49,138 nt of DNA from Oscillospiraceae bacterium (GTDB taxonomy: Bacteria; Bacillota; Clostridia; Christensenellales; UBA1242), in NCBI GenBank assembly GCA_963636895.1, contig CAVHMC010000002.1:1-49138 (forward strand), given 5' to 3'. The first letter of the stretch is position 1; the number at the start of each line of letters is the position of its first letter. The position numbers were made by a program, and so were the translations under genes. Shown in pieces: positions 18,057-46,663 of this stretch. Under the pieces are notes generated by a model. It was not told the DNA's origin. It saw only the letters and a list, made by a program, of their open reading frames with translations, and did not search any database.

Positions 18057-18101
18057 TTAGAAAATTTTACAAATTTTTTCCAAAAAAGTTGTGTAAATTG
18101 T

Positions 18102-18130: not shown

Positions 18131-18208
18131 TATATCCGTAGAAAATTAGTTTTGTTTTATCGTGTAATTTTTTTTGGTAATTAGCAAAGACTAAGATAAG
18201 GAGAAAAA

Positions 18209-18310
18209 ATGAAAAAAGGAAGATTGGGTTTTGTAGTTCTATTGCTTGTGAGCTTGTTCTGTGGCGGGCTTTTTGCTGTCGATTGGACAGGTGCAAGAGT
18301 TGTAAATGCG
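18209..18310 (+). other. Sec-type signal peptide of the giant protein
   Basis: MKKGRLGFVVLLLVSLFCGGLFAVDWTGARVVNA: basic N-region, hydrophobic core, and a VNA-D candidate cleavage site. SLFC is not a canonical lipobox. Confidence 0.7.
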
Positions 18311-21300
18311 GACTCCGTTGAGAGTGGGGCTGTCGTCGTCTACTATGTTGACGATACAAGTACTGCAGGTAGTGCTGATGGGCAGTCGAGCACACCTTTC
18401 CGAACTCTTCAAGAGGCTGTAAATGCGTGCAATGATTATTCCGATTTGTCAAGTGTTGATAGTTTTAAAATTGTTCTCAAATCTTCTCTTTTTATCGGGA
18501 ATGTCGGTACAGTTTTGTTTGAAAATAAAACGGGCAAGGATATTTACATTTTGAAAGATTCAACTTTTAGCGCAAAAAACGGCAACACTTCTATGATAAA
18601 TTTTGCGCAATTGGAAAGCGGTAAAAAACTCAACCTTGAATTTAACGGCAAAAATGGCAAATTTATTTTTGAGGGCAAGGATATTAAGGGCAATGAAGTT
18701 GTGGGCACTGCTCAACAAAGCGCACTTTGTATTGGGACAAAAAATAGTTCGGGCTCGGGTGCTGTGTATGTAAAAGATATGTCTTTAACGCTTACAAATG
18801 TAACCTTTCAAAATTTTAAATGTAAAAGCAATACATATGGTCTTGTTAATGTTGGGTGCAAGTCTACGCTTACAAATGTGGAGTTTAAGAACAACCAAGT
18901 GAGAGTGGATAGTTATTCGGAATACAACAACATGGGATATGTCTTCGACACGTCCTATTCAACGATAACTCCTTTTGAACAAAAATTTGACAGTTGTGTT
19001 TTTGAAGGGAATATTGGTGGGCTTATTTCTATTGAAAATAAAAACGACTCAATAAAAAATGTCATTATAAAAGATTGCACCTTTAAAAACAACTCTATTA
19101 AATTTGGTGCCCTTGTTAATTTGGACCAAATAGGTGTATCAAACGATAAACAGTCGTTGGCTGACGAGAAGACCTCTTCCTTGGGCTTTTCGGGGACGGA
19201 ATTTGTGGGCAACAAAGCTTTGACTACGGACACACAAGGTTCGTCGGCTTTTCTAATCAAAGCCACCAACATGTTAAGATTTGCGATGGAAAAAAGTTCG
19301 ACTAGAGTTCAAGCTGAGGGGCAGTCGGCAGATGAAGTAGGTTGCAATATCTTTAAAAATAACGAGTATGAAAGTTCCACCACAGACGCAAGTTATGCAG
19401 TAGATATTAGCGTAGCAACTATTGAAGAAAGCAAAAGTGCAATACAACTTAGTGATTTGGTTGTTGAAGATAACAATGCTACCAAAAAAGCCAATAGTTC
19501 GGCAGTGTTCTTTAGATTGTCAACGGGCAAAGGCTCGGTAAATAATGTGGTCGCAAAGAATAACCGTCAAAACTTGTTCTTGTCAAATGAAATGACGTCA
19601 ATGAATTTTGTTGACTCTACGTTTCAAGACGACAACACTTATGGCAATGGTCAATATGCGATAAAAATAGTGGACACTTTGGGGCAATGCAATTTTACAA
19701 TGAAAAACTGCACAATAAATTCGTTCAGGGCTAAAACGGGGAAGGAAAATGCTGTTGTTTGTGTGACGAATGCTTTTCAAACTGAATTTAATAATGTAAC
19801 CATAAAAAACATTGCAAATCAAACGAACACTTCTTTTGCTATAAAAATTATGGGTTGCTCAAATAATAAATTTATAGACATAAACATTGATAATTGCGAC
19901 AATGGTATCTATGTTGAAAAAGTGGGGTCTGGGCTATTTATAGATGGCGTATATTATGGCTTTTATATGTCAACTAGTAAAACAGAAAAAATGAACACCA
20001 TCTCCAACACTCGCGTTGTCTCAATATATTTGGGGGTCGTCAAAGGTATGGGTGAGACACAAGCCCTCATAAAAAATCTTAATTTGCAAAATAGTGGAAG
20101 AATTGAATATGGCGAAAGTAGTTCTAGCGTTGAAACAACGGACGAATATTCTTTTGAATTAAACAATGTCCACTATTATGGCAGGCATAGGTCAAAAGTT
20201 GAGAGTGACGACACAACGTATGGGGGGCTGTATGGCTTTAAATGGTTGTCGCTATACAACCTTTATCAAGTGATTATTGGCAACTGCTCTTATCATGACA
20301 ATAGCAAAGGGAGTTCTTGTGTGGCAAAGGTGGGCGACACAGCAACAACAGACAACTCTCAATTTGCAAATTCCATTATGGAGATAACAAATATAGCAAA
20401 CTATGTCATGATGTCTAATTGCCAATTTTACAACGTGGACAATACAAACACGGGAAATAGTTTGATTTCAATAAGCGTAAAAGAAGATTTAACCCTACAA
20501 AATTGCGAATTTAGAGGCTTCAACAACAACCTTTCGGGAGAAAAGTCAAGCTCGACTTTAATGAGCCTAAAAGCAAAAAATATATCGTTGACGAGCAATG
20601 TAACGATAGACGGGTATTGGGCTGGAAATAGTGCGATAAGATTGTCGGGGATTGAAGCTGGCTCTACAGCAAAGCTAGGTGACGTCACGTTTACGAACAA
20701 CAAATTGTGGATTTCTTCTGATAAAATGAACGAATGTGCCTTGCTTTATATTGACGCGAACAATTTTAGCAGTGTTAAAATTGGCAATACAATCTTTGGG
20801 TCGACAATGCCCGATACTGATGTGACTTCGGGCGGAAACCATATCACAGGTGCAAGCAATTATTATGGCGGGTTGATATGTATAAATGTTGATACAAGTA
20901 ATACCGAGAACAAAACAATAGAAATGTCAAACACCGTTATTGCGGGTAACATCGTGGAAAATGGCTATGCCTTGTTTGCTAGTGCGAAAAAATCAAATAT
21001 CACGTTAAGTGATGTAAAGTTGATACATAACGATATGTTGCGTACGGGGGAAAGTTCGGTCGGTGGAAGTACGATTAGATTAACTTCGTTTACTAAGGCA
21101 TCTTTGGATAACATCAAAATAGAAGATAGCAACATTTATGGATATGGTTACGATTTTTCGTATGTTGACGAAATATCTCTTACGAATAGCACATATAGTG
21201 GCAATGCTTGTGCGGGAACAACAAGTGGTTCATGCGCGGGCGCAGTGTCATTTTATGGTACAATTACAAATGCAAACATTGAGTCTTGTAGCTTTTTGGA

Positions 21301-24300
21301 TAACAAGTTTGGTAGCAACTTAATATATTATGACAATAGCAATAGTGCGGGGACTACGATAGCAACTCTCACTTTTAAGAAAAATCAATTAAAAAACAAC
21401 GAAGCTAAAAGGGTGAGTTATTTTACTAGCAAAGTGATTGTCGACTCAGATTACAAAGGCTGGTTGCTCAATTGTACTGCGGGACAAACTGTGGAATTGC
21501 AAGCCAATATAATAAGTGGTAACAAAGCAAATATCCTTAGTTTAACAAAAATAACCGGTTCTATCATTATTGATGGTGGTGAAATAACAGACAATACTAT
21601 CCCAAAATCAAACGACGGAGTGGCTAGTTCTTTCTCCAACTCTTGTATACTCAACATTCAATCTATACTAAAAACTATCAAAATTATTGGTGGGCTTGAG
21701 ATTTCACGCAATACGGTGGTGGGCAATAGTTCGATAAATTCACAAGATTCAAAGACTTACACCTTTATCAATATTTCGTCTTGTCTTGATTGGACAAATG
21801 CTTTTTATGGCAAAGTAGAATTGCTTTATATTGATGAAATTATTTGCAAGGACAATGTTTCTCTTGCTTCGGACATGATTTTGACAAGTTTGTTCCGCAT
21901 TTATAGTGTTGTAGAAACGGAAATCAAAAATGCAAATATAGAAAACAACTTTTCAAATGCAACCTTAGATTGTGTCCTTTCGTTGCCTTCAGAAAATTCC
22001 AAGCGTTTTTCGTTTACAAGTGGGACAATTTCGGGACATGATACAGTAAAAAATATTTTGTCGACATCTAGTGGTCGCCAATATGCACCTCAAATAAATT
22101 TTGCAGACTCCACCATATCTGGCAATACTTTTAGGTCCTATGCTTTTGGACAAGGGAGCGGAGAGTTGTATTATACGTTGAGTTTAAACAATTTAAAATT
22201 TGTTTATAACGTTGTAACCGCTACCAGCAATGACGATACAAATTTAATTTATTTGGGTTTGGTTCATGTTAGAAACGAAAAAATGTCCATAGACAAATGT
22301 GAGTTTTTATACAATGTATCAAGCAATGTAAGCACTGCGGGCGTTTATTTCAACAATGCCAGAGGGTCATACTCCTACGAACTTAAAAATTGTGTGTTTA
22401 CGGGCAACAAGGGGGCTAATGGTAGTGCTGTATATGTTGCAGATGGGGTAACGGTAACTTTGACTAGTTGTACAGTAGATTTAAACGAATCAACATCTGG
22501 GGCTATTTATTCAAGGAGCAAACTTACCCTAAACGATTGTACCTTTTACAAAAACAACGCAAGTGCAAATGGTGGCGTAATAAATGGTTCGAATATTTAC
22601 GTCAATGGGTGCACTTTTAAAGAAAATAGTGCAAAGTTTGGTGGTGCAATTTATCTTGTGAGTTCGGGTACTTTGATTATTGACAAGGGGTATCAAGGAA
22701 GGACCATTTTTGATGGAAATTATGTAAAAACACCAGACTCTTCTTCCAAGACGACCTTGAGTGGTGGTGCCTTGTACCTTGGTAGCAAATCGGTTACTTT
22801 GTCTTATGGCAATTTGTTCCAAAACTGCTACATCTCGGGTGGCAGTAGCGACACGATGCAGGGTGGAGCAATTTATGTCGGGACAAATGCCTCTCTTAAT
22901 CTTGAAAAGAATAGTAAAAATGGTTATGTTTCCGAATTTATAAACAATGGTAAAAGTTCCAATTATGGCGGTGCAATCGCAAACTTTGGTTCTATATATA
23001 TGAAAGACGTCGTTGCAAGCGGAAATATTGCCCAAAATGGCGGTTTTGTCTATCAACCAATAAATGAAAGCAATGTTGCGTCTTTGGAGATTTACGATAG
23101 CACAATTTCCTCTTGCTATGCAGAGGGTACAACGGATACCACAGGTCTTGGTGGCGGGTTGTACTTATCTAGCAAAGTTATTGTGTCGGGGTGTACCTTT
23201 GTCGATAATGTTGCAAATAGCTATGGTGGGGCAATTTACTATAAGGAGACAAGGACTAAAGAAGAGGGCATAGATATCCTAAATTGCACTTTCAGCGGTT
23301 CTACGGCAAACTCTTGCCATGGTACAGCCATTGCAATTGCCAATGGCAACACCGAATATGTGGTAATCAACAACGTTACGGTTAACAACACTTCTGGCGA
23401 GAGTGGAATTTTTGTTGGAGACGGCAATGTTCAAATAGAAGACCTTGAGACAACTGCCGATATAAAGGTTGGCATGGAAGTTGCAATTGCAAACACAAGG
23501 ACTTCGGTGGTGTATTTGGGGAGAAAAATTGTTTTGCCACAAGCATCTAGTGGTGCAGGGCTTACGACAAATGTCGCACTAAAATTATTTAGTGTTTTGC
23601 TTGACGAAAGCACTATTGCTATAAGTCCAACTTTTGAAGGCGTGGTGCTTGAGAGCGACGGGTCATATGTTATCAAGAGTAGCGACTTTAACAAACTTCA
23701 AAGTTGCAATACAAAGTACAAACTTTCCTTTAAAATAAACGATGGAACTAATTTTACAAAGAACACAGTTAATGCAGTTGCAGTTGATAGTGGCAGTGTA
23801 TGTGTAGCAAACGACTTTTATGGCTTTTCTACAGACAAAAATTCGCCTACTTCAGCGCTTCAAGTTTTTGCATACAATTATGGAAGCAATGTGGAAATTC
23901 TTTATGGGACAAGCATAGACGCTTGCACAAGTACAGAATGGATAACAGGGCTAGACCTTGGCGTTTTGCATACAATTTACTATGAAGTAAAAGTTGATAG
24001 CGTGACAAAAGCCAAAGGACAAGGATACGTATTTATGGAAAATGCCATAGGTATTTATGTTGCAGTTTTGCCAACTATAGGGACTGTGCAAGTGGATACT
24101 TCTTTGGACAATGGTGCTATTTCTGGCGGGGAAGTCGTGGAGTATGGCGACACAAGTGCTCGTATTGCGGGTACGTTTAGTTGGGCTCTTGATAGCAATG
24201 GGCAGGTTGTTTCTCCAACGGAAACGGGCTTAAATAGGTTTAATATTGTGTTTACTCCAAAGGATAGCAAGTATGCTTCTATTACCTTCGGTGTCGTGGT

Positions 24301-39300: not shown

Positions 39301-42300
39301 TACAATTGTTGATTGGTACAAATATGATACCACAAGCAAAAAATATAGCAAAGTGACACAAGCCGAAACGATGAATGTCGGGACCTATTATGTAGGTTTA
39401 AATATAACGGGTGAAAGGAATGCTTATTATGTAAATTACACCGGCACAGTGTACCTTGAGTATAGTGTGACTCAATTTAATATTAACTCACTAGATGTAA
39501 CAATTGAGATTGAAGAGGGGCAAGACTTACAATATACAGGTTTGTCTATAAATCCAACTATAAAGGTGTATTGGCGAGCACCGGTTGTGACGACAGACAG
39601 CAATGGAAATGTTACATTTAATGGCGTGTATACACAAACGTTGCTTGAAGATAATAGAGATTATGATTATTCTTCGGCAGGAGAAGGCACAAATATCAAT
39701 GCAGGTAAAAATAGTGGAATTATCAAAATAAAAGCAAAATCTAGCAACTTTACAGGAGAAAAACAAGCTCTCTTTGATATTGAAAAACGTGACTTGTACG
39801 CGATATCCGACCAAAATCTTACGCCAAATTGGAAAAATTCGTATTCTTATACGGGTAGTCAAATCATAATAAACGGTACCGAGTTGCCAACTATTTCTTG
39901 GGGAACCAAAACTTTATCTTTTGGGACAGATTATGTAATTCTTCCAGCAGGAGAAGGCACAAATATCAATCAGGGCAAAGGTTCTATCACTATTCGTGGT
40001 ACAGGTACAAATTATACAGGAGAGAAGGCTTTAACCTTTACCATTAGCAAACTAGATGTCAATAACAACCAAAATAAGTTTAATGTCACTTTGGAGAAGT
40101 CGGAGTATTATTACACAGGAGATGCAATACAACCACAAGTCTTGTATGTAACCTTTAACAACAAGCTTTTGACTGCGGGCGTTGACTACAACGAGACAAT
40201 AAATTATGGCTCTGAGAACACCAATGCGAGTACGAACAAAGCCAAAGTTTACATTACCTTTGGACAAGACCTTGCAAGCAACTTTACAGGGAAACTTGAG
40301 TGGACGTTTGAGATAAAACCACTCTCAATAGAAAGTGCAGACTTCGTCGTGAGGGAAAATAATGTCGAAGACGGTGCAACAAGTGTCATGTCACAAATTA
40401 CAGATGTTGTTTACACAGGCTCTGACATTACAAAAACTATCTATCTTTATGCAAAATTTGGCAATACGTATAAAAAACTTTATACACAAGCAATGCTTCA
40501 AGATACTTCTACCAACCCAGATTATGAGTATTCGTTCTCAAACAACCAAAATGTTGGCGAAGCGACGATTACCATTAGTGGTCTCAACAATTACACAGGG
40601 ACAATCAAAAAATCATTTAAAATAAATGCACTCGATATGTTCGACCTTATTAAAAATGGCCAAGCTACGGTGGCCGGCGAGTCGGGCGAAAGTATTAAAG
40701 TATCTTCTCAAGAATACACTAGAAGTGTCATTGTTCCCGATGTTTCTATAGCTTGGGGTATAAAAACTCTTGTACGTAACACCGACTACACTTTGACGGC
40801 TGTGTTTGACAACTGCGACAATGTTAATGTTAGCACAAACAACAAAACAAGGATAGACTTTATGGGCAATTACACAGGCTCGTATACCTTTACATTTGAA
40901 ATTACCCAAAGGTCATTAGCTTCAGCTACAATAAGTATTCCAGATATAGAGTATACGGGAAGTGATATTACAAGTGACGACTTGGCAAAACTATTCTCCT
41001 TGTATGACGATAATTATTTGTTGAGTTATGGGACAGATTATACGATAAATATCAACTCGACAGATAAGAAAAACGTAGGACCAAAGCCCTATGAAATTGT
41101 GGGGACAGGCAATTATACGGGGAAAATAGAAAACCTTACCTTTAACATTGTTGCAAGAAATATTGCAAACCATGTGGCGGACTTTACTCTATCTACAAGT
41201 AATGTCTATTATACGGGAAGCGTTATAAACCTTGCGGATACGAAAAAAGGTTACAACGTTGAATTTAAATATCTTGGGACAACATTGAGTTCGAATATTG
41301 ACGGTGGAGATTATAGCTTTGGTACGTACGAAAATGCCACCAATGCAGGCACCGCTTACGTAACAATAACGGGGAAAGGCAACTTTACGGGCTCGGCAAA
41401 ATTTGCCTTTACAATAGAGAGGCAAGATTTAAAGAGTTTGCCAACGAAGAATATTAAAATTAATCAAAGTTATAGATACACAGGCAAGGCTGTTTGCCCT
41501 GTGCCAACAGCAGTAACCGACCTTTATGGCAATACTGTTTCTCCAGAGCAATATACAATACAGTACAAAAACAATATCTCAGTCTCCAGCGAAAACTCCA
41601 AGCCTTCGCTAACCCTTATCTTCAAGGGCAATTATAGCGGAACTGTGACAAAAGAGTTTGAGATAGCAAAAACATATTTGACAGCAAGCGATTTGGTATA
41701 TACTCCAGCGAACCTTGTTTATACGGGTAAAACTATTGTCCCAACGTTTGAACAAATTGGAAGTTTGAGCATTAAGCGTGACGACAACGGAAAGACTATT
41801 CTTGTTACTCAAGACGATATTCAAAGTATAACTGAATATACGGGAAATAGCCTTAATTCAAAGACTGTTGATAACACAAATGTTTCTTCTGGGGCAAAAT
41901 GTGGTGCATTCGAGATTACTTTTGGTGGATACAACAATATTTATACGGGTACGGTTGTATTATCCTTTAATATTACGCAACTTGACATTTCAAGCGACTT
42001 AGTGACAATAGATAGCAACTTGACAAAAGACGAAACATATACGGGCGCTTCCATCACAAAAACATTTGATGGTAAAATCAAGGTGGGCGACGTTTCTCTT
42101 GACGGCAATTACAATGTTCAATCTTACACAAGCAATACTGACGTTGGTGTGGTTACGATAACAATTGAAGGCACAAACAATTTGACAGGCACAAGAAAAA
42201 TTCAATTCAACATAGTACCTTTTGATATTGGAAGTGCCACAGTTGGCGCCATTGCTTCTCAAACCTACAACTATGGGCGAGAAGTCACTTTGGATAGTCT

Positions 42301-45300
42301 TAAAGTTAACGTGACATTGTCTAGTGGGGCTAGAACCCTTGAAAAAAATACCGAGTATAGGATAGCGGGATACGAAAACAACACTCAAGTTGGCACCGCT
42401 ACTGTGTATATCCAAGGTGTTGGCAACTTTACGGGGACAATAACTATGACTTTTAAAATTACCACTGTGGAAATCGGCACCAATTACGAATTAAAAGAAA
42501 CAAAGACATACACCTATTCGGGAGAGGGAATTCGCCTTGGCGACCAACGAGACGAAAACGGGAAATCATACTTTGTGCTTGTAGTTGACGGTCTTGACGA
42601 GATAAAAATTTATGACGACAAGTGCAAGTATGCCAACAACTTAAAAGCAAGTACTGTTGACTCTAAAGCGAGTGTGTCCTTTAATATTTCAAATTTTTCA
42701 AACAATTATGCAAGTAAGGATATTACTATTGAATACGAAATAGAGAGACTTGCTTATGATAGTTCATATATTTCTGTGCCAGATATTCCAACTCAATTAG
42801 CAGGGGCTACCCCTATCACTATAACCTTTGAGCAAAACACTTTTGGCGAGATAAAATATAAAGAGACAACGCTTGTAGAAGGCATAGATTACACCTTGGA
42901 GCAATTCCCAACAAATGCAAGTGCAATAGCCGACACCATAGGTGGCGTGAGAATAACCTTTATTGGCAACTTTACGGGCGAAGTGGTAAAAAGATTTGCG
43001 ATAAAGAGAAATCAACCAACACAAGAAGATTTTGGAGAACAAAATTTCAAAATTGTTCCAAACGATGCAACATCTACAACTGACGTCATAAGATATGGCG
43101 AGTATGGCACTCTTGCAGATTTGAAAATTGTGAACAACTCAGGCGTTGACTCGTCAAGCATTGTGTGGTTTGAAGACCCAACCACCCCAATCAACTTTGT
43201 GGGTACGATTACTGTGTATGTTAGGTATCAACCAGACGACACCTACGATGCGGGGCTATTCGAGTTGCCTTTGACAGTTGAAAAAGGCATATACAAGGAC
43301 GAAGTCAATGTTTACGCGGACAAAAAAGACGACGAGCAATACTTTACAATAAAATACAAAAAAGGTATTGTGCTTACGGACGTTGAGTTGCCAGAAGGCT
43401 TTAGTTGGCAATATCAAGTGATTAATGCAAGCGATATTAAGTCTGGCACTCGTTATTCTACAGATGGAATTGAGTTCAAGACATATGATGGCGAGCCACT
43501 TAACACATCTCTTACTTATTACGAAGAGACGACAAGCCTAGAGTTTACTATTGGGAACGAACAATATGTAGAAAAGACCTTTAAAGCAAAATACAATTAC
43601 AATAGTGCATATTATCAAGACGTAAAGGATATTGTAGTAAAAGTTAGATTGCTCAAGGGAGACCTAGACCCAAGTGTGTTTAGATATAGAGACACCACAG
43701 TTACTTATTCTCCTACCATTACTGCATCATCTATCAAACTTCCTACTACAGATTGGCCTTGGACATGGATTGGAAATCAAAAGGGCTTTAGTTCTTCTGT
43801 CCTTAAAGTTGAAAACAGCCCATACACGTTCTATATGACCTTCGACCCAGCAAAGACCAACGAAAGTGGTGTGCCAGTTAATGGCGGTTTCCCTGAGAGT
43901 GTGTATGGCAACAAACTCAACTACAATACGCTTACGGTGGAAGCAAAGATTTACGTCAATCGTGCCGACTACACTCAAAACAAGATAAACTCTGCACTTG
44001 CAGAATACGTCGTGTCTACAGTGACTTACAAGAAAGACCTTCGTACAAGCGAAATTGACCTAAACTTGCCACAAGGTTTTGACTTGAGAGACGAAAATCA
44101 ACTTTTGTCTTATGGCGAGAACGATGTCTATGTTGTTTACAACAAGGAAAGCAAATTTGACAACAACTACAACCCTTATGGCGAAAGTGTGACAAATAGC
44201 ATATCTGTCAAGGTCCTTGTGATTTCGCCTACTCTTGTAGGGTCGCTTGAAGAAGGTGGCGGAGAAGTGGTCACCACCGCAACGGGCGGACTTGCAATAA
44301 GTAGGACATATGGAGATAATCTTGCGAATAATAGAGCTATCCCATTTGGAGTAACCTATTTCAACTACATTACGGGCAGTTGGGAAGCTGTCAACGGCTC
44401 CTCAGAGTGGGTTGACGGTTCAGAAAAGTTACTCTCCGTTGGAGTTATCACAAGGCAAGTAAAGTTTACGCCAAGTGATACAAACTTCATTTCGGGCAAG
44501 GAATATATAACTTTTGACGTCGAAGTGCTTATCTCTCAACAAGGAAATGAAGGAGAACTTAGACAAAGTCTAGCTTTTGCAAGCGACGAGCAATACATGG
44601 CTTACACGCCATCTTCCACTTTGGCAAATATCAACAAGATTCAAAGAGTGGAAGGCTCAACATCGGCGGTTGTATTTAATGCTTTTGACGACGTCTTCTA
44701 CACCTACAAATATATTACGCTTGACAAAGACGGCCATTATACACCACAAGACGTGAAAAATGCCACCGAGTACGAGTTGACAAACTCCACCGTTTTGTCC
44801 GCAAAGGGCAATAGCGAAGGTGCATATCGTTCCTTGTACATTATCTATGCCAACTTCACACGTGGCGGGTGCGTGTACTACAACTTTGGCGAAGACTACA
44901 AGCCATCGTATGAGTTGTATATTTACAAAGCGACCTTGAACGTCAACCTTCCATCTATAACCAAAACTTATGGCGACTTGTCCATTTCGGGGAATATAGA
45001 AGACGTGGGTGCCACAGGCTTAAGTGCTTTGGAAAATGGCAAAGATTACGTCTTCAATGTGCGTGATAGCAATGGCAATGCTGTTTATCTAAATTACGCC
45101 ACCCCAGCTGGTGTGTACACTATGGAAATCACTTTGGTGGATAAAAATGGCTCGCTTAGCAACAACTACGATTTTGACAAAACCAAGACCGCGACCTATA
45201 CCATTGAGAAATTGGCGATAACGGACTTCAAACTCGACCATGGCGTGTTGTATGAGAACGGCTCTATTTTGAACGACAAAATCACAATAACCTTTGACAC

Positions 45301-45784
45301 ATCACTCTTTGTTGGCGGACAAGTGCCAGATTTCGACGTGGTATTCGAAAAAGACGGCAAGGAAGTAGGCGGAGTCGTTTCAAGTGGCAAATACACCGTT
45401 CGTGTAGTGTTCAAAAATGCCAACTACGAATGTACAATGACAAGAACTTTCGAAGTCTACCAAGCACAAAGTTACAAACTTTTGATTATCCTTTTGTCAG
45501 TTATTGGCGGGGTTGCAATGTTGTCCTTTATTGCTGTGGCGTCCGTAAAACTCAATAGAAAGAGATTTAAACGTGCTATCCAAAGAAAACAATTTGAAAC
45601 TCTCAAAGACGAGATAAACAAGACCAACCCAGAGATTTTGAATAGTCACAAGTCGCACCAAGAGTCTGCTCAAAACGAGAACGACTACGGCTATTACGAC
45701 GAGCAAGGCAATTGGCAATATTACGATGGCTATTACGACGAACAAGGCAATTGGCACGACTACCAAGACGGAAATAAAAAATAA
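18209..45784 (+). CDS. giant (9,191 aa) tail-anchored surface protein / putative adhesin: signal peptide, four Pmp-type beta-helix blocks, about 35 Ig/MBG-like repeats, C-terminal TM and cytoplasmic tail
   Basis: An uninterrupted 27,576-nt ORF in AT-rich, stop-rich DNA cannot arise by chance. A GGAGA RBS lies 6 nt before the ATG. The domain logic is consistent along the whole length (see sub-features). TAA stop. Confidence 0.95.
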   Translation: MKKGRLGFVVLLLVSLFCGGLFAVDWTGARVVNADSVESGAVVVYYVDDTSTAGSADGQSSTPFRTLQEAVNACNDYSDLSSVDSFKIVLKSSLFIGNVGTVLFENKTGKDIYILKDSTFSAKNGNTSMINFAQLESGKKLNLEFNGKNGKFIFEGKDIKGNEVVGTAQQSALCIGTKNSSGSGAVYVKDMSLTLTNVTFQNFKCKSNTYGLVNVGCKSTLTNVEFKNNQVRVDSYSEYNNMGYVFDTSYSTITPFEQKFDSCVFEGNIGGLISIENKNDSIKNVIIKDCTFKNNSIKFGALVNLDQIGVSNDKQSLADEKTSSLGFSGTEFVGNKALTTDTQGSSAFLIKATNMLRFAMEKSSTRVQAEGQSADEVGCNIFKNNEYESSTTDASYAVDISVATIEESKSAIQLSDLVVEDNNATKKANSSAVFFRLSTGKGSVNNVVAKNNRQNLFLSNEMTSMNFVDSTFQDDNTYGNGQYAIKIVDTLGQCNFTMKNCTINSFRAKTGKENAVVCVTNAFQTEFNNVTIKNIANQTNTSFAIKIMGCSNNKFIDINIDNCDNGIYVEKVGSGLFIDGVYYGFYMSTSKTEKMNTISNTRVVSIYLGVVKGMGETQALIKNLNLQNSGRIEYGESSSSVETTDEYSFELNNVHYYGRHRSKVESDDTTYGGLYGFKWLSLYNLYQVIIGNCSYHDNSKGSSCVAKVGDTATTDNSQFANSIMEITNIANYVMMSNCQFYNVDNTNTGNSLISISVKEDLTLQNCEFRGFNNNLSGEKSSSTLMSLKAKNISLTSNVTIDGYWAGNSAIRLSGIEAGSTAKLGDVTFTNNKLWISSDKMNECALLYIDANNFSSVKIGNTIFGSTMPDTDVTSGGNHITGASNYYGGLICINVDTSNTENKTIEMSNTVIAGNIVENGYALFASAKKSNITLSDVKLIHNDMLRTGESSVGGSTIRLTSFTKASLDNIKIEDSNIYGYGYDFSYVDEISLTNSTYSGNACAGTTSGSCAGAVSFYGTITNANIESCSFLDNKFGSNLIYYDNSNSAGTTIATLTFKKNQLKNNEAKRVSYFTSKVIVDSDYKGWLLNCTAGQTVELQANIISGNKANILSLTKITGSIIIDGGEITDNTIPKSNDGVASSFSNSCILNIQSILKTIKIIGGLEISRNTVVGNSSINSQDSKTYTFINISSCLDWTNAFYGKVELLYIDEIICKDNVSLASDMILTSLFRIYSVVETEIKNANIENNFSNATLDCVLSLPSENSKRFSFTSGTISGHDTVKNILSTSSGRQYAPQINFADSTISGNTFRSYAFGQGSGELYYTLSLNNLKFVYNVVTATSNDDTNLIYLGLVHVRNEKMSIDKCEFLYNVSSNVSTAGVYFNNARGSYSYELKNCVFTGNKGANGSAVYVADGVTVTLTSCTVDLNESTSGAIYSRSKLTLNDCTFYKNNASANGGVINGSNIYVNGCTFKENSAKFGGAIYLVSSGTLIIDKGYQGRTIFDGNYVKTPDSSSKTTLSGGALYLGSKSVTLSYGNLFQNCYISGGSSDTMQGGAIYVGTNASLNLEKNSKNGYVSEFINNGKSSNYGGAIANFGSIYMKDVVASGNIAQNGGFVYQPINESNVASLEIYDSTISSCYAEGTTDTTGLGGGLYLSSKVIVSGCTFVDNVANSYGGAIYYKETRTKEEGIDILNCTFSGSTANSCHGTAIAIANGNTEYVVINNVTVNNTSGESGIFVGDGNVQIEDLETTADIKVGMEVAIANTRTSVVYLGRKIVLPQASSGAGLTTNVALKLFSVLLDESTIAISPTFEGVVLESDGSYVIKSSDFNKLQSCNTKYKLSFKINDGTNFTKNTVNAVAVDSGSVCVANDFYGFSTDKNSPTSALQVFAYNYGSNVEILYGTSIDACTSTEWITGLDLGVLHTIYYEVKVDSVTKAKGQGYVFMENAIGIYVAVLPTIGTVQVDTSLDNGAISGGEVVEYGDTSARIAGTFSWALDSNGQVVSPTETGLNRFNIVFTPKDSKYASITFGVVVEVVGYGVVYYGVKDTGSLVTQEMYKTAEDAKKNDNPIITRGILDSDIFTEMMKKMADGGTIYMFKNCAYPVNLYVDGKTIYIKKYASDADPSTLSTTKYNEHTNSAMFSFVTMVSGSISFGSANMTGKIIIDGDGKKSYYPLIELGGFDTTIVNASFYNGVEITNFNGIGCSAIGVVGYINLTIYGLKATNCNYILPRNLDNDDVTVPIEKVAGRNNPILYYGGAVLSTRTGYIADNSSNTRYTPRVTIEDFEADNCSSESYGGAICITSMPVGCQFYINKDSRGNIAMGMLCDNTRYYPISIANMTISNCSAVKGGGAFATLCATGLVIKNMTLTNNSTNGNGGAIYLKYAESMYKGEISNNHADKYGGGIYVENQPTSVATANSLTDTEKQNTTYYDVELGINAQNTLDILSNSAGLLGGGVYAENGLTMSYANIISNTITIGETFSGDLGDWCFYGAGIYANCEKTTNQYKLDTVRLTLSNCVVKNNKIINNNANVIKLAGAGIYAKEISLSNVTITQNSIILNVKTTSTIFMQGAGLSLQKINSTSNTIENCEITNNNIKVFVSTEAFVGGAGVSLASSTPDSNGIENMLTIKNSDTSNNFFDIASASDKVVSKYSQVLVEALYNSEEDSATTTVVLTLDGVTSYSTSKEGGIGSIGIGVSGSQPILSSKINVSLIRLTGLLNITSALEATSFTSGMPGGCTNLHDDYEIDYYCSIYAYDLDKDSVVKINITEENGVEKYQIVQFDQEYARSLSSTDSDIYELGANAINEQNKVTIDVLSSLRNIFDFTIVKTMSEGETKIEYKKFYSTIGLISVDTYSTTIYGPFAVYAQKTSDTTLLEEIFWDPINGNDSYSGSTAKYSVKTLENAVKKSISGATIYLINSLEITKNTTLTAKNRIIQRNSNNKITIRAGVTLTLQDIVFDESNATTQYGTLIDILTGGTLVVETGTNITNLQSNNSQAFSSIINNRGNLIINGGQFTLNSVNGSGGIIYSTGAIEINDGFFSDNFALQGSVAWIEAGEVIINGGSFVRNRQYSSSDVTSLVVQKGGVFYVNEKATLTINDGSFEGNNAMLGAVIYSVGKVNITGGVFYNNNARTAKDYTDDLYTYYAPGFGGVGYFEKGTANVSGGNFEANVATNGAVFVVGSVNTSAQLDISSKAVFYNNSAITLTGARDKYLTSFTSATTWSKNNLSNKIINNMKFGSGGVIFGYQNATINISGGDINSNISANYGGALYVLGSTLVISGGAIRNNRIDFYGSVESDNSEYNSRKNRDTKGGAIYYEGMENLEGFSFVNNEIDADTQAITNTTISSIKNPRFVIKGGVISGNLANQGSAIYLATGSSNAYYASLVISGGEIVSNGEFEFRYYGTSQAQQVNGGAIYAVANTFIEMKDDAYIACNKAFFAGAIYTDGNILVNGGRIENNETNNETSTTASAIYAGGENGSVVIRDGIISNNLAHAGKLYSTPAVYVVAGGLYLGENAYVFGNNNEYILEGSIKQRQIDILFEKLVDGSKKNVFIYDNFSSSAKIGFYSQETNIGTKKLRFAQVNPKACDSAVVKVFENTSDNTIYLALIGTGLYIGAQEIKTVKYTASDYIARRDGDVHGIDITIEEASNTIEPEFLCLEEGVINYYGNDLSKVYEAKKNDSEWVKENPKVASGTYYVLFRFYDTLTSTYLTDANGNDFYDYRVIKITTKDYFVEKNPTVTTELIAGVNYVASGGSENVYVIRFVENDWKVVDSLNNAIVLDGVFMLASTSIKFDTIGKQYMLVKYIPEDKTYAEKTFAIEVFVSAQDIYYSESKGTFYLDENLTLKAFTTDSSIAPTMKDALDALTANGSIVIKDGSYKVTSNEEWNIVNKTIVFKRGTNAKDALIETVKGSLTINATGTGSLTIDGGALWFEEVSSGKWNDSDPTKIDVSKQYQQTSGLQSRGALIYAKSNVTISGKVILQNNENTDNGGAIYAESGVVTLSNGVSILSNMAQNGGAIYIGNTADLNIKNSGEQVVIKQNATRSGFGGAIYVSTGRELAIDNANITTNLARGSGGAIYAFDAKSLNLTNTIIDNCKSTDSTIYVSVSSKDTVLTLKDCNFTVPTDVDVKGIIYSGNKTKMAGVVFEGENYFRGSILLDENIFIHDKSSALKEDSAVGVKRLNDEESIADILVALSNTSSDDYSSKYSLISDNTKLVNITTHNADNYYNEKGYANYVTINGKQIATNTLQIGGGFEASILPYQGATNTYTIKMEYGKLYGDYFNANNTKISNVKLSDGTYGEIDLTQEKVGYKKISYELNLNSDNKTMNMSYQVVYNAGIKIIATWEQAQPTFEVEVYTFDEKIETEDSKGTVVGYKGLNKVEAVKGTYNTTYGKQVLVKVTITNRNDTDFSYRVNSANGEFTQERDSEDDVYFAYILKEASIYDFTIISIATNNVTQDDKRSEQKVTVNIAKAIIDLKLDDSVLSRTFDGNDMSIQVSDLIVDTKLEYNDSKDDLNLAIVTSAKEKGDSGATARNVGTYNCVVSVGNNNYQLSSATLAWHITPLQLKISHYIDIWDNNKIYTNDFQGGSHYLVPCFENVKGSDKVNVSISTQNYSTSETETLIYQFSNVDPYTLLNDLIKPTSHSLKAPFFSKIGKYIGNIEKIYNIDNNYKLSDDEQDTTYTYTWNITKSQAFISKFVLSDGTPTNKEEIIANTIVGGAYDMGSKTYSGNTKYLSVIMKDSVGNEITSGLTLELTLYNNTTNVKVGETKTVIVGVGDPFDTSKFVSFTNAGTYRLEVKVTEGYDMDTKSVYKAIFNLEKEQLTLQWALGIATSESEEVSEYTRNESINGTYHLAISYLAKEVYAYVTGATVNGEAFNIVSDMFEYAKGLDEVFTTNCKNLSLRDNTKNLEVERVVRLTSTYSDNYEIVSNASCLVFISKTKLSVTWDSNTQKEFTGSDILFEPTVKTNLNEVVNVSSFYDLSGNKYTAINSYTCTIQGTQALEDSNYYIATEDTTCAWSIIPKEITLEWYAVSYTDENGNGQVKLGSKTFSFVYDGKYYDLMANPYGLIAGRTDVSVALEGSGAQKNVRSGAVSSYTKVAKDLTGSDSGYYTIKADSIEKTWQITPCPVIIEWTVERDSYETSNLSSVREVYYTGKDRVVTFTSSGFINTTEKSSWDKTASITTKYRSSAISNLVDASGTKEVGIYITSVTSNDSNYKVDISSGSVTWEIKKAPMTIEWQWLDSNVDIYKNKKLLPAGDTDYNGTSVVYTSQANYLTTVKAVASNDATMSITQFSPTYKIYGGDPINTKDIKNAGTYEVTVILANETDRNHYELTNPSMTFAIDPATIGFEWKSSADSYFKEGASGVPEAEVLINSSTGEAKAQYYYFEEKDPAKSDGSVISYKVEFLYNNVIKQTNIENVTPKPETSSTLIAFKDFLANNSKDAGTYTIRITGMSSTNNYVFDKNSSTNSITYVIKPKQLDESTRITLVYSDGTSYTYDGTQKTIDVQISNNFALGVVFDNYKLTGTTTAKYAGNYNFKVEITDPNYIFSGTGTNVSSDLTWTIGKREATIVWHNTKLETISAGYMFDYTGAFQGPVAPKVINAVEGDVFDFTYDTTSPYVKEAREVGKYTTRLNSVENKNYYLSDNTRDFSWEIVNTRISFKWSASNTSFAKDSDDVQTATYTANPMYFMPTTTSIFNTDREDITFRIDVYYSDTATSFTGAGTDTASTCFTISDINTSGFNYNPTKTCINVGYYMAKVTLVNAGNYQLSNDNTNVFMWRISQRTVNFSWTKTSVTYNGTQQNPTATVLGAQSTADLGQFSLTFQFSSLSTEDWGDSSPKNAGQYRVKVYSLGKAEVLSNYTFNANDYITFTINKKSLGDITFIRGDSSSSLIYEGSAKYYLLDTTKVSDMGVESSDISNIVFNHTYYYKSVKGTTFNELSEGGTSCKNAGSYRLEILLGDDTTSANYKLNNNTTQTWQIVQKSITFNWYVENEKDYQTKENMPFNIIYCGKEIVVKAKAVIDNVEQSTEIVGSYGNNIGKDVATKTAEVLSLSSQNLYDNNYTFSKDTNSNYQKSWSIVKRAVSISWACSVAGDTSYQKVYNGNAYYYYPTFEGTSKIEGDDLAFQTTITRAGISISTFTNCVDAGSYTASVSGMSGVSSGNYELSSSANKQQSWTIMPQELTVEADGSTSVTYDSAEHRFKAKITSGLVVTDDVQLLYTYTVDGEEQQKVYFVSATNVGTYTATLSLGGEKAGNYTIKSDNQSLVFTITKCQLTISWSSSSYSYNFNGLEQHPEPTIVNPIDVSTSTIVSYKYKAQASGSTGYTLETISPIHAGNYQMTAQLNDPTNYEWSGTNETSFTINQVTPAINIYPIAMGSASGSGSNTTALIVVSGCGDDAPYGSVILTVGTTVYSDLNLTQLPLTTVSSDGKTTRFDGVGNNDTAKEILQTYYSNVGCSYCIYSYPETNAEGYTPTAKYTAGKDDSKYSMESNYTNVSVPQAGQQFVPQGNNQEDIYLYYESSNSIQPVTSSSTISGYKYGDRVTFYITGGSDITYETNTTTQDTYNNFYRIMINSQVATPSASSNSVEVIENGISIAKVTYVSLLESKDGVTTINGLKILQVEVQFLKPTGANALYVGAYKKGGDYVDASSNKKNFAQVASNPGKFFIDKKAITINVPDATMNYGDKSSLAFAKDGSGNLVRYTLDSSGAIVQPYQFLSNFSLTSGGLVRDTDKADIISALKPKIIEKASTKTGYNSKVVTLETLYNDYYIFTTSGNTYGGLLITGRKLTASDVIVTLQDEANLCYVGEKLQPTITSIKTTDTNSTTLGSDSYDIKDYGEYINAGVGVITIQFKGDYTGTIERQYKINKLDISKATKNDTSSTKTKLFTSKDGTYYLCYDAKLEEEVSYTGETIVKNFDSVFTIVKNDATIKTFAYKALPSDIKITSFSNQNAGRANIKIEALSNSTNFTGTKDIYFNITACTVNSEDITSYTLSDGNSNHEIVFSGLNNNPNVLEVKYKTNISLAYTIVDWYKYDTTSKKYSKVTQAETMNVGTYYVGLNITGERNAYYVNYTGTVYLEYSVTQFNINSLDVTIEIEEGQDLQYTGLSINPTIKVYWRAPVVTTDSNGNVTFNGVYTQTLLEDNRDYDYSSAGEGTNINAGKNSGIIKIKAKSSNFTGEKQALFDIEKRDLYAISDQNLTPNWKNSYSYTGSQIIINGTELPTISWGTKTLSFGTDYVILPAGEGTNINQGKGSITIRGTGTNYTGEKALTFTISKLDVNNNQNKFNVTLEKSEYYYTGDAIQPQVLYVTFNNKLLTAGVDYNETINYGSENTNASTNKAKVYITFGQDLASNFTGKLEWTFEIKPLSIESADFVVRENNVEDGATSVMSQITDVVYTGSDITKTIYLYAKFGNTYKKLYTQAMLQDTSTNPDYEYSFSNNQNVGEATITISGLNNYTGTIKKSFKINALDMFDLIKNGQATVAGESGESIKVSSQEYTRSVIVPDVSIAWGIKTLVRNTDYTLTAVFDNCDNVNVSTNNKTRIDFMGNYTGSYTFTFEITQRSLASATISIPDIEYTGSDITSDDLAKLFSLYDDNYLLSYGTDYTININSTDKKNVGPKPYEIVGTGNYTGKIENLTFNIVARNIANHVADFTLSTSNVYYTGSVINLADTKKGYNVEFKYLGTTLSSNIDGGDYSFGTYENATNAGTAYVTITGKGNFTGSAKFAFTIERQDLKSLPTKNIKINQSYRYTGKAVCPVPTAVTDLYGNTVSPEQYTIQYKNNISVSSENSKPSLTLIFKGNYSGTVTKEFEIAKTYLTASDLVYTPANLVYTGKTIVPTFEQIGSLSIKRDDNGKTILVTQDDIQSITEYTGNSLNSKTVDNTNVSSGAKCGAFEITFGGYNNIYTGTVVLSFNITQLDISSDLVTIDSNLTKDETYTGASITKTFDGKIKVGDVSLDGNYNVQSYTSNTDVGVVTITIEGTNNLTGTRKIQFNIVPFDIGSATVGAIASQTYNYGREVTLDSLKVNVTLSSGARTLEKNTEYRIAGYENNTQVGTATVYIQGVGNFTGTITMTFKITTVEIGTNYELKETKTYTYSGEGIRLGDQRDENGKSYFVLVVDGLDEIKIYDDKCKYANNLKASTVDSKASVSFNISNFSNNYASKDITIEYEIERLAYDSSYISVPDIPTQLAGATPITITFEQNTFGEIKYKETTLVEGIDYTLEQFPTNASAIADTIGGVRITFIGNFTGEVVKRFAIKRNQPTQEDFGEQNFKIVPNDATSTTDVIRYGEYGTLADLKIVNNSGVDSSSIVWFEDPTTPINFVGTITVYVRYQPDDTYDAGLFELPLTVEKGIYKDEVNVYADKKDDEQYFTIKYKKGIVLTDVELPEGFSWQYQVINASDIKSGTRYSTDGIEFKTYDGEPLNTSLTYYEETTSLEFTIGNEQYVEKTFKAKYNYNSAYYQDVKDIVVKVRLLKGDLDPSVFRYRDTTVTYSPTITASSIKLPTTDWPWTWIGNQKGFSSSVLKVENSPYTFYMTFDPAKTNESGVPVNGGFPESVYGNKLNYNTLTVEAKIYVNRADYTQNKINSALAEYVVSTVTYKKDLRTSEIDLNLPQGFDLRDENQLLSYGENDVYVVYNKESKFDNNYNPYGESVTNSISVKVLVISPTLVGSLEEGGGEVVTTATGGLAISRTYGDNLANNRAIPFGVTYFNYITGSWEAVNGSSEWVDGSEKLLSVGVITRQVKFTPSDTNFISGKEYITFDVEVLISQQGNEGELRQSLAFASDEQYMAYTPSSTLANINKIQRVEGSTSAVVFNAFDDVFYTYKYITLDKDGHYTPQDVKNATEYELTNSTVLSAKGNSEGAYRSLYIIYANFTRGGCVYYNFGEDYKPSYELYIYKATLNVNLPSITKTYGDLSISGNIEDVGATGLSALENGKDYVFNVRDSNGNAVYLNYATPAGVYTMEITLVDKNGSLSNNYDFDKTKTATYTIEKLAITDFKLDHGVLYENGSILNDKITITFDTSLFVGGQVPDFDVVFEKDGKEVGGVVSSGKYTVRVVFKNANYECTMTRTFEVYQAQSYKLLIILLSVIGGVAMLSFIAVASVKLNRKRFKRAIQRKQFETLKDEINKTNPEILNSHKSHQESAQNENDYGYYDEQGNWQYYDGYYDEQGNWHDYQDGNKK
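18311..23450 (+). other. beta-helix block 1 (long CxFxxN-type repeats ending in a dense GGAIY cluster at ~22380-23400)
   Basis: Recurrent motifs include KDCTFKNN, KNCTINSF, GNCSYHDN, SNCQFYNV, QNCEFRGF, KNCVFTGN, NDCTFYKN, NGCTFKEN, SGCTFVDN and LNCTFSGS. They are interleaved with NGSAVYV, FGGAIYLVSSG, SGGALYLGS, QGGAIYVGT, YGGAIANFG, LGGGLYLSS and YGGAIYYKE. These are the two signature tetrapeptides (GGA[ILV], FxxN) of the polymorphic-membrane-protein repeat family. Confidence 0.75.
24700..26150 (+). other. beta-helix block 2
   Basis: YGGAICITS, KGGGAFATL, GNGGAIYLKY, KYGGGIYVEN, LLGGGVYAEN, YGAGIYAN, LAGAGIYAKE and VGGAGVSLAS, interleaved with NCS/NNS-type turns. Boundaries are approximate. 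Confidence 0.65.
27050..28790 (+). other. beta-helix block 3
   Basis: SGGIIYSTG, KGGVFYVNE, MLGAVIYSVG, GFGGVGYFEKG, NYGGALYVLGS, TKGGAIYYEG, NQGSAIYLATG, VNGGAIYAVAN, FAGAIYTDG and VAGGLYLGEN, with repeated INGG/ISGG turns. Boundaries are approximate. Confidence 0.65.
30000..30600 (+). other. beta-helix block 4 (short)
   Basis: SRGALIYAKS, DNGGAIYAESG, QNGGAIYIGNT, GFGGAIYVSTG and GSGGAIYAFDA. Boundaries are approximate. Confidence 0.65.
31620..37330 (+). repeat. class I Ig/MBG-like tandem repeats (about 18 units, roughly 105 aa each)
   Basis: By eye there are about 19 repeat junctions of the form aromatic-x-I-x-x-[KPQ]-x-[LI] (LAWHITPLQL, YTWNITKSQA, CAWSIIPKEI, KTWQITPCPV, VTWEIKKAPM, LTWTIGKREA, FSWEIVNTRI, FMWRISQRTV, QTWQIVQKSI, KSWSIVKRAV and others). 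Each is preceded by N[AV]G[TSQ]Y and followed by a [YF]xG/YDG/YNG strand (TFDGND, FVYDGKYY, YTYDGTQK, VTYNGTQQ). This matches the pattern I know as the MBG (YGX-type) domain. The family name comes from memory, not from a search. Confidence 0.6.
38210..43010 (+). repeat. class II MBG-like tandem repeats (about 16-18 units, ~90 aa period)
   Basis: About 16 copies of the closing motif G-[ND]-[YF]-T-G followed by x-F-x-I (GDYTGTIERQYKI, GNYTGKIENLTFNI, GNFTGSAKFAFTI, GNFTGTITMTFKI and others). Each repeat opens with a YTG strand (LQYTGLSINP, YSYTGSQII, YYYTGDAIQP, VVYTGSDIT, IEYTGSDIT). A 24-nt identical DNA segment at 39677-39700 and 39947-39970 gives a 270-nt (90-aa) period. Confidence 0.65.
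43010..45470 (+). repeat. C-terminal Ig-like repeats of a third type (membrane-proximal stalk)
   Basis: A recurring pattern reads ...L-P-x-G-F-x-W / LPTTDWPWTW / LPQGFDL ... Y-x-P ... NY ... V-x-V-x-[KR]. One module, GSWEAVNGSSEWVDG...VKFTPSDTNF, resembles GTFSWALDSNG...FTPKDSKY at ~24170-24300 and GTWSFVDEN...FTPSNT in the 14427 paralogue. Confidence 0.5.
45479..45547 (+). other. C-terminal transmembrane tail anchor of the giant protein
   Basis: LLIILLSVIGGVAMLSFIAVASV (23 hydrophobic residues) is immediately followed by the basic stop-transfer sequence KLNRKRFKRAIQRK. No LPXTG or other sorting motif is present. Confidence 0.8.
45548..45781 (+). other. predicted cytoplasmic tail with a duplicated YYDEQGNW motif
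   Basis: A positive-inside segment is followed by DYGYYDEQGNWQYYDGYYDEQGNWHDYQDGNKK. The two YYDEQGNW copies are also near-identical at the DNA level (45688-45770). Confidence 0.65.
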
Positions 45785-46657: not shown

Positions 46658-46663
46658 CATTTA

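Follow-up and report, generated by a model that had tools for sequence, protein, structure and literature searches.

A 27.6-kb open reading frame predicted to encode a 1.0-MDa tail-anchored surface protein in uncultured Clostridia

Giant genes of bacteria classically fall into two classes, one of which encodes surface proteins, and such proteins are a major bacterial group among the more than 41,000 UniProtKB proteins of at least 5,000 amino acids (aa; PMC11573180); predicted bacterial proteins extend up to 85,804 aa (bioRxiv 10.1101/2023.11.21.568195). The present analysis concerns a giant open reading frame (ORF) on contig CAVHMC010000002.1 (assembly GCA_963636895.1), of which a stretch of 49,138 nucleotides (nt), called here the window, was analysed as a whole. 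We consider it likely that this ORF is genuine, that it is a single gene preceded by a promoter-like site of its own, and that it encodes a predicted fibrillar cell-surface protein of about 1.0 MDa. Set against the sizes quoted above, the claim of an initial annotation of the same DNA that the product is 'among the largest bacterial polypeptides' is generous.

In topology, the protein comes closest to Ebh of Staphylococcus aureus, whose modules (FIVAR-GA and DUF1542) are alpha-helical. Ebh has a mass of about 1.1 MDa, its C-terminus is anchored in the membrane, and its function is described as unknown (PMC4856396). Like the staphylococcal surface proteins Ebh and Embp, the giant protein is of such a size, lacks an LPXTG motif and is encoded by one gene in a Gram-positive (Bacillota) chromosome (PMC4856396). 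However, no sequence or domains are shared, the giant protein being all-beta (beta-helix and immunoglobulin (Ig)-like) and devoid of the YSIRK-type signal peptide motif, and topology is all that the proteins have in common. The combination of Sec export with a C-terminal anchor, in which the initial annotation saw mechanistic interest, is thus not new at about 1 MDa, since Ebh provides a precedent (PMC4856396).

A second group of comparable proteins is represented by Giant1-5 of Apilactobacillus kunkeei (3,000-8,000 aa), in which an N-terminal beta-solenoid is followed by long imperfect repeats (PMC12863079). They resemble the giant protein by their Sec signal peptide, their distal beta-solenoid and their very long array of highly imperfect 60-100-aa repeats, and also in that their genes are clustered with other large surface-protein genes (PMC12863079). 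They have no transmembrane domain and attach by a C-terminal SH3b-like/DUF5776 domain (PMC12863079), whereas the giant protein lacks such a domain and has a transmembrane helix instead. The two show no detectable similarity in sequence, and several beta-helix modules are spread over about 4,400 aa of the giant protein, versus a single one in Giant1-5.

Two further systems share parts of the protein. CmbA, an adhesin of Lactobacillus reuteri, is far smaller and has an LPXTG anchor. It is anchored in the cell wall and governs mucosal adhesion (PMC13339910). One of the two repeat families described below, family A, aligns as a profile with the whole 97-residue solved repeat of this adhesin (PDB 4ng0, E=3.6e-6). 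Unlike CmbA, the giant protein is anchored by a transmembrane helix, has no LPXTG motif near its C-terminus, and combines 18-19 such repeats with beta-helix modules and a second repeat type. The chlamydial polymorphic membrane proteins (Pmps) belong to the type V autotransporters and carry an outer-membrane beta-barrel at their C-terminus. What they share with the giant protein are clustered repeats of the GGA[ILV] type, for which a right-handed beta-helix is predicted, with two repeat matches above curated cut-offs; in contrast, no such barrel was found in the giant protein, its host is Gram-positive, and the FxxN motif is only modestly enriched.

Reading frame, topology and domain order

The ORF has a single TAA, at its very end, and is continuous over 27.6 kb and 9,191 aa, as the initial annotation had it (coordinates of all features are collected in Table 1). 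Its start is unambiguous, because an in-frame stop lies four codons 5' of the ATG. Over positions 18209-45784, six-frame translation gave 249 to 764 stops in each of the remaining five frames, which close every 12-37 codons; this quick closure had been noticed before, as had a mass near 1 MDa, with which the calculated value agrees. There are no N letters in the whole window. The DNA of the ORF has about 37% G+C, its synonymous codon usage is uniform and matches that of the window's housekeeping genes along the whole length, and a codon-usage score prefers frame 0 in 18 of the 19 blocks of 500 codons.

Given a ribosome-binding site (RBS), a promoter-like site and a terminator-like hairpin (17536-17553) located 3' of the upstream 1,016-aa gene, the giant gene looks like a transcription unit of its own. 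The promoter-like site at 18102-18130 is a consensus match only, and sites of this kind are not enriched in the region. The RBS, plausible promoter, signal peptide and C-terminal tail anchor of the initial annotation were all recovered. The same cannot be said of the special processivity control that it envisaged: terminator-like sites within the ORF occur at chance level (13 versus 8.8±2.4, and 10 versus 8.8±3.5), folding of the 5' leader (z=-0.6) and of the 3' flank (z=-0.1) is not unusual, and the window contains no antiterminator gene. Special features of transcriptional processivity were rejected on these grounds.

Hydropathy analysis detects exactly two hydrophobic segments in the giant protein, at aa 4-28 and aa 9091-9113. 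The first belongs to a predicted signal peptide without canonical lipobox, for which cleavage is possible after LFA (aa 23) or after VNA (aa 35). The second is followed by the sequence KLNRKRFKRAIQRK, which fits the positive-inside rule and points to a large extracellular body, one membrane anchor and a cytoplasmic tail. The protein combines the signal peptide, long tandem-domain array, single C-terminal transmembrane helix and positive-inside tail of giant tail-anchored fibrillar surface proteins, a class defined by function rather than by sequence. Hallmarks of other classes were looked for as well. The sole match to LP.[TSA][GANS] lies at aa 1776, far from where an LPXTG anchor near the C-terminus would be; there is no GGxGxD motif and no HemolysinCabind match of the RTX type; no (S[AVTE])x6 runs of the Ser-rich repeat type occur, serine making up 9.8% of residues; and Pfam scans returned no FIVAR/GA, DUF1542, SLH or cell-wall-binding family. 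No autotransporter family was found in Pfam or NCBIfam scans of the whole protein, which ends in an alpha-helical transmembrane segment and a tail.

Between these ends lie Pmp-type beta-helix repeats followed by MBG/Ig-like adhesin repeat arrays; the initial annotation had suggested searches for Pmp repeats, MBG domains and beta-helix clans. In the N-terminal half, GGA[ILV] occurs 22 times in four clusters, versus 2.1±1.4 times in shuffles, all occurrences lying within aa 1478-4252; canonical '...GGAIY...' rungs are visible in these clusters, and FxxN is modestly enriched in the protein (58 versus 32±5). Cap motifs typical of beta-helix starts (PF.TL.EA / PF.TLQEA type) are present at aa ~45-75 and ~2870-2905. 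Pfam Beta_helix matches cluster 1 at aa 1354-1490 (E=4.8e-8). Within aa 3641-4640, which includes cluster 4, Chlam_PMP (PF02415) reaches 23.6 bits, versus a cut-off of 20.6, and TIGR01376 22.7 bits, versus 15, while the remaining Pmp-type clusters score under both of these cut-offs. Cluster 3 resembles the upstream 1,016-aa protein (BLASTP, E=5e-6). Of the first 4,470 aa, the Pmp/beta-helix clusters together cover about 1,500. The other ~3,000 aa of this half have no Pfam or NCBIfam family match and no PDB sequence match. Hydrophobic autocorrelation disclosed no rung periodicity, an iterated single-rung hidden Markov model (HMM) did not extend the clusters, and a single-sequence AlphaFold model of aa 36-1200 was discarded, its pLDDT (predicted local distance difference test) being 37.

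The C-terminal half consists of about 45 tandem all-beta domains of 85-110 aa, some 35 of which are recognisable by iterated HMM searches (18+1 of family A, 16 of family B). Neither family occurs in the N-terminal half, as judged by HMM searches within the protein. Family A is characterised by the motif Y.G...P ... NAGTY.v.v...NY.l....W.I.k. Its profile (A2, 14 repeats) matches residues 7-96 of the 97 of PDB 4ng0_A, the LAR_0958 repeat, and by this profile comparison family A (18 or 19 units) is homologous at the domain level to the L. reuteri adhesin repeat LAR_0958 (CmbA). Pfam MBG_3 gave 17.2, 16.4 and 10 bits on the giant protein, all under the cut-off of 25. One further family A / MBG(YG.)-type domain lies at aa ~8905-9007 (HMM match at aa 8966-9007, E=8e-10).

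Family B, of the 'GNYTG' type (YTG...... DY....N.NVG.A.vtI.G.GNYTGt....F.I), is weakly related to family A, with the same motif order (hhalign E=7.8e-4, probability 25%). Neither Pfam nor NCBIfam has a model for it, and among PDB sequences its profile found nothing beyond nanobody matches at chance level. An AlphaFold model built from a 15-repeat alignment is all-beta with seven strands (pLDDT 80.6, predicted template modelling score 0.60), and it has no significant Foldseek neighbour (best E=1.4 in PDB and 0.14 in BFVD). Family B may be an undescribed domain family, or it may be an effect of the chosen domain boundaries. Two beta-rich segments, at aa 6381-6805 and 8296-8900, resemble additional divergent units; no Pfam match was obtained over aa 8290-8964. 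PDB sequence searches with both halves of the giant protein returned a single match, to an EAGR box, in the tail considered below.

The description of the domain grammar as coherent from end to end needs qualification, because only the ~1,500 aa mentioned above are assigned among the 4,470 of the N-terminal part and the model of the second repeat type has no structural neighbour. Likewise, the HMMER searches against Pfam and TIGRFAM gave TIGR01376 and beta-helix matches above cut-offs, whereas MBG domains appeared below them only.

Homologue searches returned very little. No relative of aa 1-1200 was found at E≤0.001 among 1.84 billion representative proteins, a search with aa 1-1500 gave one weak beta-helix match, and that with the last 144 aa was empty. 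Scans found no relative of aa 4201-9191 in GTDB genomes, and none of aa 1-4990 in JGI metagenomes. By these searches the giant protein is a sequence orphan, with almost no relatives for the parts searched, yet of a known kind, the giant surface adhesins.

Proposed function and integrity of the gene

The following scheme would account for this architecture. The precursor would be exported N-terminus first by the general Sec pathway, by means of its classical signal peptide. Translocation would halt at the single C-terminal transmembrane helix, so that the 78-aa basic tail would stay in the cytoplasm and the protein would be held in the membrane. The membrane-proximal half, with its ~45 all-beta domains, LAR_0958/CmbA-type included, would form a long stalk crossing the cell wall, and the distal half, with the Pmp-type beta-helix modules and ~3,000 aa of other sequence, would be displayed far from the cell. 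With each Ig-like domain taken as about 4 nm long and each beta-helix rung as 0.48 nm, we estimate that the fibre would measure 0.2-0.3 µm when fully extended. Judging from its domain types, the protein would most likely serve in adhesion or aggregation, the partner being host glycans, mucus, plant polysaccharide or other cells.

The question arises as to whether a real protein of this kind could have a primary role other than adhesion, either as a structural protein of the envelope, as proposed for Ebh, or as a carbohydrate-active scaffold whose beta-helices bind or cut polysaccharide. A link to carbohydrate degradation has been drawn for giant proteins elsewhere (bioRxiv 10.1101/2023.11.21.568195), and for Ebh itself the function is given as unknown (PMC4856396). 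The right-handed beta-helix is moreover the fold of many polysaccharide lyases and hydrolases, the downstream neighbour matches Pectate_lyase_5, and some 3,000 aa of the N-terminal half have no family match. However, neither Pfam nor NCBIfam disclosed a catalytic family at any threshold tried, and the only solved relative is an adhesin repeat. Pmp-type repeats, too, are best known from adhesins. We therefore regard such a role as unlikely.

Several points weigh against our reading of the ORF as one gene for a fibrillar surface adhesin. About two thirds of the N-terminal half are without assigned fold, given the pLDDT of 37 and the lack of a PDB sequence match. The family B model is without structural neighbour, of which wrong domain boundaries are a likely cause, and the proposal of adhesion draws on domain types only. 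The gene is known from DNA sequence alone, and its continuity rests on one assembly. Relatives having an 81-84% identical pyruvate kinase do not carry the giant gene at the syntenic position (<=10 kb), and searches in proteins, GTDB and JGI found no conserved orthologue, so that purifying selection is not demonstrable. Lastly, G+C at third codon positions (GC3) climbs from 0.35 (codons 1-8400) to 0.47 (last 700 codons) and peaks at 0.56 in aa 8851-9000; recombination could produce this rise at the end of the gene or, less likely, a join.

Some of these points bear directly on the possibility that the ORF is an assembly artefact, namely an in-frame chimera of at least two surface-protein genes, or else a decaying gene or sequence whose frameshifts were polished away. 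It is true that there is a single metagenomic assembly: exact look-ups with the HU protein and the 705-aa neighbour gave only short Logan contigs of SRR13434599, the same run, or nothing. GC3 does climb in the last ~700 codons, and none of the searches made gave an orthologue. Nevertheless, the climb (window 43700-45784, aa ~8500-9191, at the membrane-proximal end of the gene) is gradual and not a step. Beyond the giant gene, the intergenic DNA is also G+C-rich, and the downstream gene returns to a GC3 of 0.31; the GC3-rich end may be a recombination or acquisition tract.

Moreover, it is very unlikely that a join would keep the frame and leave 9,191 codons free of stops in DNA whose other frames close every 12-37 codons. 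Collapsed repeats, which the initial annotation had named as a possible refutation, were looked for: Tandem Repeats Finder reported nothing of note in the ORF, which has no tandem DNA repeats, and its internal protein repeats are diverged (mostly 28-36% identical, with a maximum of ~52% in self-BLASTP). In the absence of near-identical internal repeats, repeat collapse is unlikely, and there is nothing of this sort to mediate a mis-join. The parts also stand in a logical order (signal peptide, beta-helix modules, stalk), with exactly one transmembrane helix, at the very end. An artefact is, in our opinion, very improbable.

The cytoplasmic tail and its EAGR-like motif

The predicted cytoplasmic tail ends in YGYYDEQGNWQYYDGYYDEQGNW, in which a local duplication of 39 nt has produced a pair of GYYDEQGNW motifs. 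The tail is similar to the EAGR box of Mycoplasma genitalium MG200, whose structure is solved (4dcz_A; YGYFDETGDWSW-KGYFDEQGKW), with E=8.2e-5, an E-value that is inflated because one 9-residue motif is locally duplicated in both proteins. EAGR_box (PF16713) is also the top Pfam match of the tail, at 21.8 bits, under the cut-off of 27; TIGR03834 gives 17.1 bits, under its cut-off of 34.1. The EAGR boxes of Mycoplasma (MG200, MG312, MG386) and the tail thus have in common a tandem G-Y-[YF]-D-E-x-G-x-W motif with similar spacing, whereas the copy described here is located on the tail of a transmembrane surface protein in Clostridia, with Pfam and NCBIfam matches below cut-offs. In M. genitalium, such boxes are found in MG200 and MG312, two motility proteins of the terminal organelle, of which MG312 is intracellular and cytoskeletal; gliding is impaired when the boxes are deleted (PMC9262362).

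The motif G-Y-[YF]-D-E-Q-G-x-W was found at 43 loci, in many phyla, among 185,579 species genomes, versus a rough chance expectation of about four. It occurs behind signal peptides in Lachnospiraceae and behind glycine-zipper segments in Sphingorhabdus. Eight times it stands at the C-terminus of proteins of ~620 aa without transmembrane segment, in metagenome-assembled genomes of Christensenellales and other Clostridia; these proteins end in 4-6 copies of G-[HY]-[YFW]-[DN]-E-x-G/Q-x-W. In the two of the eight that were scanned with Pfam (L032 and L047), an N-terminal EAL domain (E~1e-19) is followed by a long charged linker and a sub-threshold EAGR_box match. Judged from this distribution, the GYYDEQGNW-type motif is a widespread hairpin-type repeat and not a Mycoplasma hallmark.

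That the tail turns the giant protein into an inside-out regulated or cytoskeleton-coupled adhesin, in the manner of the Mycoplasma terminal-organelle and gliding machinery, is extremely unlikely: the MG200 match, the top rank of EAGR_box and the cytoplasmic EAL-domain proteins of Christensenellales that end in the same repeats all speak in its favour, but the Pfam score remains under the cut-off, the likeness essentially comes down to one 9-residue motif duplicated in both proteins (so that the E-value overstates independence), the 43 loci with the motif are spread over many phyla and include periplasmic and extracellular contexts, the window holds no partner gene, and the host belongs to the walled Clostridia and is not a mollicute.

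The presence of the same motif on cytoplasmic EAL proteins of the same order nevertheless suggests a possible link to the tail of the giant protein. As a very speculative and doubtful proposal, the tail might be a docking module by which an intracellular partner, the ~620-aa EAL/EAGR-like protein being a candidate, controls display, clustering or release of the 1-MDa adhesin. If true, this would constitute a Gram-positive transmembrane 'inside-out' link of cyclic di-GMP signalling to a giant adhesin, and would extend the EAGR motif beyond Mycoplasma gliding proteins.

Host, gene neighbourhood and significance

Table 1. Features of the giant gene, of its product and of related genes (positions in the window, except for the ~620-aa proteins)
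Feature	Position	Strand	Remarks
Promoter-like site TTGTCG-17-TATAAT	18102..18130	+	10/12 consensus positions; ~79 nt 5' of start codon
RBS AAGGAG	18198..18203	+	5 nt before ATG; read from sequence
Giant ORF	18209..45784	+	9,191 sense codons, ATG start, TAA stop; 1,004,568 Da; isoelectric point 4.8
Predicted Sec-type signal peptide, aa 1-~35	18209..18313	+	MKKGR, then 18-20-aa hydrophobic core; hydropathy
N-terminal distal region, aa 36-4473	18314..31627	+	G, N, S, T rich, P poor
Pmp-type right-handed beta-helix cluster 1, aa 1354-1700	22268..23308	+	Pfam Beta_helix above cut-off, GGA[ILV] motifs
Pmp-type beta-helix cluster 2, aa 2254-2470	24968..25618	+	motifs; Chlam_PMP match sub-cut-off
Pmp-type beta-helix cluster 3, aa 2960-3530	27086..28798	+	motifs; cap motif aa ~2870-2905 ahead
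Pmp-type beta-helix cluster 4, aa 3900-4270	29906..31018	+	Chlam_PMP and TIGR01376 above cut-offs
Family A array, 18 tandem ~100-aa domains, aa ~4474-6380	31628..37348	+	iterated HMM searches
Segment aa 6381-6805	37349..38623	+	Gly/Ser stretch; MBG 'YG.'-like unit aa ~6673-6800; no Pfam match
Family B array, 16 tandem ~85-110-aa domains, aa 6806-8295	38624..43093	+	iterated HMM searches
Membrane-proximal region, aa 8296-9090	43094..45478	+	~6 divergent beta-rich units, one family A/MBG(YG.)-type domain, last ~80-aa domain
Predicted single C-terminal transmembrane helix, aa 9091-9113	45479..45547	+	LLIILLSVIGGVAMLSFIAVASV; hydropathy
Predicted cytoplasmic tail, 78 aa, basic	45548..45781	+	begins KLNRKRFKRAIQRK (KLNRKRFKR); topology inferred
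Two GYYDEQGNW hairpin-type motifs, aa 9158-9182	45680..45754	+	EAGR-box-like; DNA direct repeat D5
Upstream neighbour, 1,016 aa	14406..17456	+	Pfam Chlam_PMP E=1.2e-10, Beta_helix E=5e-9
Downstream neighbour, 705-aa lipoprotein (lipobox VTAC)	46862..48979	+	Pfam Pectate_lyase_5 E=8e-9
~620-aa EAGR-like repeat proteins	L032:6088-7998; L047:2547-4415; also L018, L021, L023, L034, L045, L046	+ (L032); - (L047)

Chromosomal genes precede the giant gene in the window: queH, a P-type ATPase, a TetR regulator and pyruvate kinase; tRNA-Val; rpsF-ssb-rpsR; iscU-nifS with an Rrf2 regulator; tadA and tRNA-Arg; and signal peptidase I (12117-12824), degV and hup. TGA serves as a stop in the window, which indicates the standard genetic code. 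The closest pyruvate kinases are 81-84% identical and lie on metagenome contigs from ENA, NCBI and Logan; among those with a source name, 'Clostridia bacterium' (63%) and 'Christensenellaceae bacterium' are nearest. A 148-kb contig of one relative (81% identical pyruvate kinase) carries the sporulation gene yabP. Together, the pyruvate kinase relatives and yabP point to a walled, Gram-positive, uncultured host of the Clostridia, Christensenellales-like. A mollicute origin, prompted by the EAGR match, was rejected in view of the use of TGA as stop, the clostridial relatives and the sporulation gene on the contig of a relative. The two relatives examined (81-84% identical pyruvate kinase) keep only the block of QueH, P-type ATPase, TetR and pyruvate kinase. 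On their contigs, a gene of 250-276 aa without Pfam match lies behind pyruvate kinase; in the window, a 254-aa multi-pass membrane protein, also without Pfam match, is encoded at 5839-6603 (+). The longest ORF of the tadA-like deaminase (10996-11600 region, - strand) begins with a GTG at 11556 and overlaps tRNA-Arg(TCG) (11524-11600) on the same strand, and its real start is probably further downstream.

Both immediate neighbours of the giant gene encode smaller beta-helix surface proteins, so that the three appear to form a small surface-protein locus. By BLASTP, the upstream protein of 1,016 aa and the giant protein have beta-helix modules in common; the former is a smaller version of the same design, with an N-terminal signal/anchor, Pmp/beta-helix modules, a C-terminal transmembrane helix and a short basic tail. 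The downstream 705-aa lipoprotein has a pectate-lyase-like adhesive beta-helix domain. No genes for type I secretion (ATP-binding cassette protein, membrane fusion protein, TolC), accessory Sec (secA2/secY2), sortase or glycosyltransferase are present in the window, in agreement with the initial annotation, which had also noted the absence of a sortase signal.

Just 5' of the promoter-like site of the giant gene, ~550 nt of intergenic DNA (17560-18100) are extremely A-rich on the + strand and made of degenerate units of 11-23 nt, for example CAAAAAAATAA; this could be curved DNA, an UP-like region or a silencer region. On the other side, a G+C-rich repeat cluster (45785-46600) separates the giant gene from the next one. 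In this cluster, a stretch of 226 nt is present in two identical copies (45977-46202 and 46317-46542), together with tandem units of 86 nt and five copies of the palindrome-containing CCCCCTTGCTATTGGGG, which is found nowhere else in the window. The cluster has no Rfam match and no copy in the loci retrieved for comparison, and a folding test of its first 146 nt gave an RNA stability that is not unusual. It is followed, within 46629-46861, by a perfect sigma-70 consensus promoter (TTGACA-17-TATAAT, 12/12) and a leader of ~200 nt ahead of the 705-aa lipoprotein gene. This leader holds a terminator-like hairpin (AAGGCAGTAACA...TTGTTCTGCCTTTTTTT) and may be an attenuator or riboswitch; it matches no Rfam family.

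Size or export route alone opens no new mechanistic question. What is worth keeping is the orphan status of the protein, its all-beta version of the Ebh topology, the family B repeat type and the EAGR-like tail. The first 1,200 aa without relative, and family B without Pfam model or structural neighbour, illustrate how poorly databases cover such proteins. If the gene is expressed, its product would be an all-beta counterpart to Ebh, and Bacillota would have a second example of a protein of ~1 MDa that is exported by Sec and anchored by its tail. The protein would provide an uncultured gut- or rumen-type lineage of Clostridia with a surface fibre of an estimated 0.2-0.3 µm, which probably sets what the cell sticks to.

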